Of a stretch of DNA of 12,561 bases, positions 3,501-6,500 are shown one piece after another (position 1 is the stretch's first letter; each line of letters starts with the position of its first letter). The DNA is from a virus (lineage: Duplodnaviria > Heunggongvirae > Uroviricota > Caudoviricetes). Made by a program: the position numbers. The stretch lies in IMG/VR virus record IMGVR_UViG_2529293043_000042. The stretch is one strand, 5' to 3'.

Positions 3501-6500
3501 CAGGACGCTGAGACGCCACAAGGAACAGATTGGCAGGCTCTTTAACATCGACGAACTCTCAACCTAACCGTTGAGACCAGAACTTGAGTGGTTTTGGGGA
3601 TGGCGCGAATTGCAGCTGCAAGACAGCGATCGAGAAGATAAACACCTCGACGCGTCATGCGCCAAAGCCACTTAAAGGAGACCATCATGGTAACCATTGT
3701 CTGGAAAGAATCCAAAGGTACGGCAAAAAGCCGCTACAAAGCTCGCAGAGCAGAACTTATTGCCGAGCGACGCAGTAATGAAGCACTGGCGCGAAAAATT
3801 GCGCTAAAGCTCTCTGGTTGCGTCAGAGCAGACAAAGCAGCATCACTCGGAAGCCTTCGCTGCAAGAAGGCAGATGAATGCAGTGGAAGTATTTGCCTGC
3901 CAAACGTAGCCATTTACGCGGCAGGCTACCGGAAATCAAAACAACTGACGGCGAGATGATAAATTAATTTGCTAATTACTTGTTTTTGCCATGCTTATCC
4001 TGAGCGATAAGTTCATCCATAAGACTGTCTTTCTTCCCAGCAAACCTAATGTAGCACTCATTTCTATAGCGTTCCGGGATAACAAAACGGTCGATTTCAG
4101 GATATCCAGTAGCAGAAGGTACCCGAATAAGAAGCCCTTTTTCGAGCAATGAGATTGCTTCAGGGCTTCCCTTTTCTGTCTTTAGCTGGTTATTAGCGGC
4201 TACAGCGAATGCCAAATACGCTCTTTCTCCAAGAGTTAACGAATCAAACAAATCTTGCACGTATTTCTCTTCTTTAGATTTGCGCTTCTGAGCAGCGAAT
4301 ATCTCAATTCTTTCAGTCACAGCGTGATAAGCGGAATTAACAACGCCGTTAAGCACATAGCTAACGCAAAACAACAGGATGTAATACATCCAGTAATGAG
4401 GAAGGATTTCTGGATTATGCAGGTTTATCCATTCTTTTACGCTTACAGGCATAACAATAATCAATATAATCAGGATGATTAGCATATGAATCAACTGTTT
4501 AAGTGTCATTCCTTGCAGGAAAAAATGCATTAGTTCCTGCCACCATGAGTTGTTCATCGGCGTTTCTCTTTTGCTCTCTGTAGGGGTGAATAGAGTTTAT
4601 CCGATTTCTCGCTGTAGGGGTACACGAGAACCACCGAGCCTGATGTGGTTAAAAGACAGGCATACTAATAAACACTGCACTGTGTATTCATTCCAACGAG
4701 TGAATACACTGAGCAATGTCGCTCGTAACTAAACAGGAGCCGACTTGTTCTGATTATTGGAAATCTTCTTTGCCCTCCAATGTGAGGGCGATTTTTTATC
4801 TGTGAGGATATGAACAGATGTCAAACATCAAAAAATCATCATTGATTACGACTGGAAAGCATCAATAGAAATTGAAATCGACCATGACGTAATGACAGAG
4901 GAAAAACTTCACCAGATTAATAATTTCTGGTCAGACTCTGAATACCGACTCAATAAACACGGCTCTGTATTAAATGCTGTATTAATCATGCTGGCGCAAC
5001 ATGCTCTGCTTATAGCAATTTCAAGCGACTTAAATGCATATGGTGTTGTGTGTGAGTTCGACTGGAATGATGGAAATGGTCAGGAAGGATGGCCTTCAAT
5101 GGATGGTAGCGAAGGAATAAGAATTACCGATATCGATACATCAGGAATATTTGATTCAGATGATATGACTATCAAGGCCGCCTGAGTGCGGCTTTACCGC
5201 ATACCAATAACGCTTCACTCGAGGCGTTTTTCGTTATGTATAAATAAGGAGCACACCATGCAATATGCCATTGCAGGGTGGCCTGTTGCTGGCTGCCCTT
5301 CCGAATCTTTACTTGAACGAATCACCCGTAAATTACGTGACGGATGGAAACGCCTTATCGACATACTTAATCAGCCAGGAGTCCCAAAGAATGGATCAAA
5401 CACTTATGGCTATCCAGACTAAATTCACTATCGCCACTTTTATTGGCGATGAAAAGATGTTTCGTGAAGCTGTCGACGCTTATAAAAAATGGATATTAAT
5501 GCTGAAACGGAGATCAAGCAAAAGCATTCACTAACCCCATTTCCTGTTTTCCTAATCAGCCTGGCATTTCGCGGGCGATATTTTCACAGCCATTTTCAGG
5601 AGTTCAGCCATGAACGCTTATTACATTCAGGATTGTCTTGAGGCTCAGAGCTGGGCGCGTTACTACCAGCAGATCGCCCGTGAAGAGAAAGAGGCAGAAC
5701 TGGCAGACGACATGGAAAAAGGCCTGCCCCAGCACCTGTTTGAATCGCTATGCATCGATCATTTGCAACGCCACGGGGCCAGCAAAAAAGCCATTACCCG
5801 TGCGTTTGATGACGATGTTGAGTTTCAGGAGCGCATGGCAGAACACATCCGGTACATGGTTGAAACCATTGCTCACCACCAGGTTGATATTGATTCAGAG
5901 GTATAAAACGGATGAGTACAGCACTCGCAACGCTGGCAGGGAAGCTGGCTGAACGTGTCGGCATGGATTCTGTCGACCCACAGGAACTGATCACCACTCT
6001 TCGCCAGACGGCATTTAAAGGTGATGCCAGCGATGCGCAGTTCATCGCATTGTTGATCGTCGCCAACCAGTACGGCCTTAATCCGTGGACGAAAGAAATT
6101 TACGCCTTCCCTGATAAGCAGAACGGCATCGTTCCGGTGGTGGGCGTTGATGGCTGGTCCCGCATCATCAACGAAAACCAGCAGTTTGATGGCATGGACT
6201 TTGAGCAGGACAATGAATCCTGCACATGCCGGATTTACCGCAAGGACCGTAATCATCCGATCTGCGTTACCGAGTGGATGGATGAATGCCGCCGCGAACC
6301 ATTCAAAACCCGCGAAGGCAGAGAAATCACGGGGCCGTGGCAGTCGCATCCCAAACGGATGTTACGTCATAAAGCCATGATTCAGTGTGCCCGTCTCGCC
6401 TTCGGATTTGCTGGTATCTATGACAAGGATGAAGCCGAGCGCATTGTCGAAAATACCGCATACACTGCAGAACGTCAGCCGGAACGCGACATCACTCCGG

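Follow-up and report, generated by a model that had tools for sequence, protein, structure and literature searches.

The N antitermination gene and the nut sites in a stretch of viral DNA of 12,561 nucleotides (nt) (Caudoviricetes; IMG/VR record IMGVR_UViG_2529293043_000042), here called the window, were analyzed by sequence comparison. N in the window appears to be a natural domain chimera in which codons 1 to 64 are of the phage 21 type and codons 65 to 90 are of the P22 gp24 type, with the joint between the two lying inside the gene. Very probably, the locus represents the early-left control module (pL, the nutL boxA and boxB, a structured leader, and the chimeric N) of a prophage of the VT1-Sakai/CP-933V type. 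The original prediction for this region had described a mosaic early operon in which a phage 21-type N and its nut sites were combined with a lambda-type Red/kil/cIII block, and had placed the junction between N and cIII, around sieB and ea10. The region was found to be mosaic, but neither the position of that junction nor the lambda ancestry of the Red block held.

The joint within N

A breakpoint map was built from BLAST searches and alignments against phage 21 (OL657228), lambda, P22 (NC_002371), 1H12, HK629, and mEp213. The comparison with lambda and phage 21 that the original prediction had proposed for locating the breakpoint showed that phage 21 identity ends at 3878, inside N. Breakpoints were found at 3494, 3878, 4662/4667, and ~1216, and the segments of the left arm were as follows.

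Up to 3493: operators and pL, belonging to the immunity cassette (1217-3493); 99.8% identity to phage mEpX1
3494-3878, + strand: phage 21-type module, from the pL transcript start through boxA-L, boxB-L, and the N leader to N codon 64; 97.7% identity to phage 21 (OL657228) over 385 nt
3875-3879, + strand: mosaic joint in N (codon 64/65), placed by alignment where a 48-nt stretch (3831-3878) ends
3879-4662: last 26 N codons, sieB, and the sieB promoter stretch; 97.5 to 100% identity to 1H12 and the "Lambda_2E9" group, 86.8% to P22 over sieB
4662/4667: joint at which ~340 base pairs (bp) with orf28 and ral are absent; same joint in 1H12
4667-8319: ea10 through exo and beyond; 97.2% identity to lambda, 96.4% to phage 21, and 97.7% to 1H12 (to 7801)

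Within the first four of these segments, the following elements were recognized.

3460-3488, + strand: pL promoter (TTGACC, 17 nt, GACTAT), with the OL operators (3418-3486) overlapping; from the VT1-Sakai annotation by coordinates
3584-3680, + strand: long structured N-leader hairpin, ending beside the AGGAG ribosome-binding site (3676-3680)
3687-3959, + strand: N gene, 90 amino acids (aa), the N coding sequence of VT1-Sakai; ATG at 3687 after the AGGAG site
3717-3773, + strand: arginine-rich motif GTAKSRYKARRAELIAERR, N residues 11-29; the boxB-binding peptide of phage 21 N by identity
3879-3959, + strand: C-terminal N module (…DECSGSICLPNVAIYAAGYRKSKQLTAR), P22/1H12 type; 97.5% nucleotide identity to 1H12

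Identity to phage 21 ended abruptly on either side of the 3494-3878 module; upstream, pL and the OL operators are members of the immunity module and are not phage 21-like. Over N itself, 190/193 nt (98.4%) matched phage 21 across 3687-3878, and identity then fell to 26% across 3879-3959. The description of this N as phage 21-type was therefore sustained for codons 1 to 64 and not for codons 65 to 90, and full-length orthology to phage 21 N was not found. A gradual divergence of the C terminus from phage 21 was ruled out as an explanation, because the drop from 98% to 26% takes place within a codon or two. Identity to 1H12 followed the opposite course across the joint, at 89.6% over 3831-3878 and 97.5% thereafter. 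The 48 nt of 3831-3878 are common to 21-type and P22-type N genes, and this stretch is a plausible site of homologous exchange.

The two parts of the protein were assigned separately. N residues 8 to 29 were identical at 22/22 positions to chain A of PDB 1nyb, the phage 21 N peptide with boxB RNA, and in the protein alignment the arginine-rich motif did not differ between window N and phage 21 N, in agreement with the original prediction. The last 26 residues (DECSGSICLPNVAIYAAGYRKSKQLTAR) aligned with the C terminus of P22 gp24 (GGSVLLPGVALYAAGHRKSKQITAR) and with those of the 1H12, mEp213, and HK629 proteins, and gave no alignment to the tail common to phage 21 and lambda N (ERK…YSKP…GRQKIK…PLI). 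Profile searches identified the product as a member of the N family (Pfam PF25694 N_peptide, 63.3 bits against a cut-off of 27.9; phrog_271, E = 5.5e-34). PF25694 is a P22 gp24-like profile; consistent with a P22-type C terminus, window N passed it over its full length (residues 4-90 on profile positions 4-100), whereas phage 21 N, at 22.4 bits, fell below the cut-off.

The relatives of this N share it in part or as a whole. Phage 21 resembles the window in N residues 1 to 64 (~98%), including the whole arginine-rich motif, but its N is 99 aa long with a lambda-like C-terminal third. P22 shares the gp24 C-terminal module (…LP.VA.YAAG.RKSKQ.TAR), but differs in its arginine-rich motif (GNAKTRRHERRRKLAIERD) and in its boxB; 1H12 likewise has a P22-type arginine-rich motif and boxB. 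The mEp213-type N combines a 21-type middle and a P22-type tail with a different arginine-rich motif. The hybrid form itself, identical or 99% identical, is shared by phiSTEC801-Stx1a and the isolated phage HK629, and the HK629 annotation refers to CP-933V N. Over nutL and the hybrid N, HK629 is 98 to 99% identical to the window, but it diverges directly after the N stop codon, where its downstream genes are HK620-like. Among 5,426 complete E. coli genomes, this N gene was present at a coverage of at least 80% in 105. In the same set, nutL plus N at 80% or more was found in 521, the 21-type part (3494-3878) being sufficient by itself to reach that coverage. By subtraction (521 minus 105), roughly 416 genomes have the 21-type leader and N(1-64) but lack this C terminus.

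The lambda-like tail of phage 21 N could equally be the derived state. In its full form, this alternative holds that window N is ancestral and that phage 21 N is the recombinant, having received both its C terminus and ral from a lambda relative. The C terminus of phage 21 N (ERKQNRIYYSKP…GRQKIKLGSKPLI) is indeed close to that of lambda N (ERKNQRTWYSKP…GRQKIKGKSIPLI), with the rest of both proteins dissimilar, and the mEp213 protein likewise joins a 21-type middle to a P22-type C terminus. However, pairwise identities give no direction, and the excess of genomes without this C terminus (~416 versus 105) is a matter of frequency only, not of polarity. We consider this history possible but doubtful.

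Intragenic mosaics of this kind have been reported before. The gp24 proteins of phage L and P22 are 96% identical over their N-terminal 75 residues, have unrelated C termini of 25 to 35 residues, and are reported to be functionally interchangeable (Zaworski et al. 2020, PMC8022706). That exchange resembles the one in window N, but it concerns other phages and other C-terminal types, and the paper does not include the 21-type arginine-rich motif (PMC8022706). In phage epsilon34, an altered N terminus is found on a conserved remainder (PMC2629481). The chimera agrees with the known modular nature of N-type antiterminators and with pervasive lambdoid mosaicism, and raises no new question.

In other E. 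coli prophages, matches to only part of N repeatedly stopped at N nt 96, 145-148, 192, and 207-214, which suggests that N has been assembled from several exchangeable sub-gene segments. A stronger form of this idea, that N proteins consist of at least three freely exchangeable modules (arginine-rich motif, middle, and C terminus) with breakpoints near codons 32, 49, 64, and 70, and that a P22-type tail on a 21-type half might alter Nus or RNA polymerase dependence relative to phage 21, seems improbable to us. If it were true, a changed dependence on Nus factors or polymerase could shift the timing of the early genes and have an indirect effect on prophage induction or on the release of Stx1.

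The nut sites and the predicted antitermination system

Both nut sites of the window were delimited by comparison with the annotated phage 21 sites.

3537-3544, + strand: nutL boxA GCTCTTTA; identical to the annotated phage 21 boxA-L (OL657228)
3557-3576, + strand: nutL boxB hairpin TCTCAACCTAACCGTTGAGA; identical to the phage 21 "nutL" stem-loop (OL657228)
1191-1210, - strand: nutR boxB hairpin UUCACCUCUAACCGGGUGAG; includes the whole annotated phage 21 nutR stem-loop
1220-1229, - strand: nutR boxA CGCTCTTTCA; part of the cro/immunity module and not the phage 21 version

The assignment of both boxB hairpins to the phage 21 type was borne out base for base. On the minus strand, 1191-1210 reads TTCACCTCTAACCGGGTGAG, within which the entire phage 21 nutR stem-loop is found. 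The nutL boxB folded as a 7-bp stem closed by a CUAACC hexaloop; taken together, the two hairpins have stems of 6 to 7 bp, the same hexaloop, and a folding energy of -7.3 kcal/mol each (z = -5.8 for nutL and -2.6 for nutR). CTAACC loops on a stem of at least 5 bp occurred exactly twice in the 12.5-kilobase window, and these are the two boxB elements; shuffled windows gave a mean of 0.039. Both hairpins lie on the strand that is transcribed, one shortly after pL and the other shortly after cro, and a boxA was recognized by sequence upstream of each. At nutR this element (CGCTCTTTCA, 9 nt upstream of boxB) is boxA-like and putative. An Rfam scan of the window returned no curated nut or boxB family, its sole match being the cIII thermoregulator. 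As judged by sequence identity on the RNA and the protein side, the nut/N recognition pair appears to be of phage 21 specificity.

Between nutL boxB and the N start codon, the leader is highly structured (-67.8 kcal/mol and z = -4.06 for the fold of 3496-3700). The lambda N leader is processed by RNase III. By analogy, the long hairpin at 3584-3680 may serve in RNase III processing or in the control of translation.

N is largely disordered. In lambda N, the arginine-rich motif binds boxB, the central part binds NusA, and the C-terminal part binds RNA polymerase. From the identities, hairpins, and family membership described above, RNA binding, antitermination, and a role for the C terminus would be expected in the window to follow the paradigm of lambda, phage 21, and P22. 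Upon loss of the repressor, pL and pR transcripts carrying boxB with the phage 21 CUAACC hexaloop would be made, and the arginine-rich helix of N (residues 11-29) would bind both hairpins. N, with boxA and the host Nus factors, would then act on RNA polymerase, which would be reached through the C-terminal part of N. Specificity would thus come from the pairing of the 21-type arginine-rich motif with boxB, and the P22-type tail is presumed to contact the polymerase. The modified polymerase would pass the terminator-like sites at 4770-4797 and 5209-5235, which precede ea10, cIII, and the Red genes, and on the right arm it would also pass tR1. The boxB pair and the arginine-rich motif are still matched despite the foreign immunity cassette that lies between the nut sites, the outcome expected if selection maintained a functional N/nut pair.

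If so, a family of Stx1 prophages that matters clinically has N/nut specificity of the phage 21 class, a result of modest practical value. N of this locus would also illustrate cleanly how a domain chimera occurs in nature: its RNA-recognition part moves together with the nut sites, and its polymerase-contacting tail with the neighboring sieB.

Ancestry of the flanking segments

The features downstream of N, through exo, were the following.

3976-4557, - strand: sieB superinfection-exclusion gene, P22 type, antisense to the pL operon; by homology
4578-4662: conserved segment upstream of sieB (promoter), common to P22, lambda, and 1H12
4667-7371, + strand: common lambdoid block from ea10 to exo; identity to lambda, phage 21, and 1H12 runs past 7371
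4770-4797, + strand: intrinsic-terminator-like site ahead of ea10; from a terminator scan
4818-5185, + strand: ea10 pseudogene, with a 1-nt deletion after 4836
5209-5235, + strand: terminator-like site ahead of cIII; from a terminator scan
5258-5422, + strand: cIII, 54/54 residues identical to lambda; phage 21 cIII also 54/54
5391-5534, + strand: kil, 45/47 against lambda
5610-5906, + strand: gam, 94/98 against lambda
5912-6697, + strand: bet, 260/261 against lambda
6694-7371, + strand: exo, 220/225 against lambda

SieB in the window is 84% identical in amino acid sequence to P22 SieB versus 27% to lambda SieB, its gene is 86.8% identical in nucleotide sequence to that of P22, and it matched the corresponding profiles (PF14163, 1.1e-25; phrog_1301, 6e-124). 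The gene lies antisense directly downstream of N, and the gene order in P22 is alike (24, then sieB). The adjoining promoter segment (4578-4662) is 94% identical to lambda and 98.8% identical to P22, and it ends at the ral/orf28 deletion joint. P22 differs from the window here in that it keeps ral and has Erf/Abc instead of Red. Phage 21, with which 3879-4662 has no alignable similarity (26% in N), has ral and lacks sieB.

The cIII, kil, gam, bet, and exo genes follow in the lambda order, and each product is near-identical to its lambda counterpart, as had been noted at the outset. The block as a whole is 97.2% identical to lambda (4667-8374), 96.4% identical to phage 21 (4667-8319), and 97.7% identical to 1H12 (4667-7801). 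It cannot mark lambda ancestry, because phage 21 itself has it, with an identical cIII; its use as such a marker was ruled out, phage 21 and 1H12 both carrying the same block.

The proposal that two parents contributed, one a complete phage 21 N/nut unit and the other a lambda Red/kil/cIII block, with a junction near sieB/ea10 where ral was lost, accounts for the 21-type boxB and arginine-rich motif, for the 97.2% identity to lambda from ea10 to exo, and for the missing ral. It does not account for the end of phage 21 identity at 3878, within N, or for 3879-4577, which match neither lambda nor phage 21 but P22 and 1H12; 4578-4662 also match P22 and 1H12, though lambda shares 94% there. Moreover, the presence of the supposed lambda block in phage 21 implies no switch from phage 21 to lambda, and the ral-less joint is found unchanged in 1H12. 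We regard this proposal as very unlikely. Instead, the region appears to have more than two ancestries; what lies between the nut sites, the immunity region, is of yet another type (mEpX1).

Loss of ral was confirmed by alignment: orf28 and ral are cleanly absent, with ~340 bp missing in both the window and 1H12. Because a 1H12-like donor explains 3831-7801 with the ral-less joint included, the absence of ral appears to be an inherited deletion joint and not a junction between phage 21 and lambda. Indeed, 1H12 covers 3831-7801 in one piece at 98%, taking in the N C terminus, sieB, the joint, ea10, and the Red genes, and since this match is unbroken, a single crossover within N suffices for the left arm. 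The simplest history for the chimeric N would be a single homologous crossover within the shared 48 nt (3831-3878), between a phage with a 21-type nutL-N and a 1H12-like phage that already carried P22-type N and sieB genes as well as the common ea10-Red block and lacked ral. N codons 65 to 90 would then have come together with the P22-type sieB, and the immunity cassette between the 21-type nut sites would be a separate replacement of the mEpX1 type.

The ea10 gene (called ssb in VT1-Sakai) was correctly predicted to be frameshifted. One nucleotide (A) is deleted after 4836 relative to both VT1-Sakai and lambda; the ea10 frame ends after 16 codons, and a remnant open reading frame (ORF) of 97 aa begins at 4892. 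The Rfam match mentioned above (Lambda_thermo, 5245-5303, 88.5 bits) lies at the cIII start and represents the thermoregulator of cIII translation.

The source prophage and the right arm

Positions 565-12561 of the window aligned by BLAST over 11,998 nt to VT1-Sakai (AP000400), which is the Stx1 prophage Sp15 of E. coli O157:H7 Sakai. The alignment had 3 substitutions and 1 gap (99.967% identity) and was collinear from the early region through int. By this identity, the window can be assigned to an Stx1 prophage of the VT1-Sakai/CP-933V type from E. coli O157:H7. VT1-Sakai/CP-933V has the same N, nutL, nutR, sieB, cIII, and Red genes; the window differs in the IS629/IS1203 end in gene O (1-564), the 1-nt ea10 deletion, and the three substitutions. 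The AP000400 record already carries a "putative N-utilization leftward" site, a "putative N-utilization rightward" site, and an N "similar to bacteriophage phi-21 N." The nutL and N locus is thus known and annotated, the combination of modules is not new, and the only refinement over the known locus is the joint within N. No specific report that describes this N directly for Stx1 phages was found in a literature search.

Positions 1-564 are the right end of an IS629/IS1203 (IS3-family) element that sits in the replication gene O, of which ~76 codons are left (565-794, - strand). VT1-Sakai is without this insertion, and a few O157:H7 genomes have it, e.g., NZ_CP044140.

Several points weigh against the interpretation of the locus as an early control module assembled by a single crossover at the 48-nt stretch. 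This prophage copy is probably replication-defective, with IS629 in O and a frameshifted ea10, and N here may have lost selection. The nutR boxA (CGCTCTTTCA) is unlike both the phage 21 and the lambda versions. The history, furthermore, is not unique, because mEp213-like N genes already have a 21-type middle with a P22-type C terminus, and the crossover could instead have lain near codon 32. The further step of taking the hybrid N for a crippled relic, in which a foreign C terminus unrelated to that of phage 21 N has abolished RNA polymerase contact and the module decays in a defective prophage, would fit the IS629 insertion and the ea10 frameshift of this copy, but we find it scarcely credible, given that the N ORF is intact, with no difference from VT1-Sakai, that HK629, an isolated phage, has the protein at 99% identity, that the same C-terminal module is found in P22, 1H12, and mEp213, that the full-length form occurs in the 105 E. 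coli genomes, and that the unrelated gp24 C termini of phage L and P22 are reported to be interchangeable (PMC8022706).

On the right arm, identity to phage 21 was 94.8% over gene O, cII, tR1, and boxB-R and stopped at ~1216, between boxA-R and boxB-R; the phage 21 boxB-R is identical to that of the window, but its immunity region and boxA-R are different. The immunity cassette (1217-3493; cro, cI, the operators, and pL) is bordered on that side by the interval between the two nutR boxes and on the other by the pL transcript start (3494). The N of mEpX1 is a different variant (78% amino acid identity). Since mEpX1 has a near-identical immunity region with a different N, immunity type and N type assort independently.

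Between cI and pL, at the position that rexAB has in lambda, two ORFs of 93 and 183 aa (2335-3174), the latter with a hydrophobic end, are followed by a terminator at 3181-3204. They matched phrog_12039 and phrog_12602 and are common to phage HK544; a Pfam search of them gave no match. These ORFs could be exclusion or defense cargo expressed in the lysogen. At the 3' end of cI, a 62-bp stretch (2186-2247) was 98% identical in lambda, 434, and SfI, the surrounding repressor genes being dissimilar, and it looks like a conserved linker able to promote module exchange.

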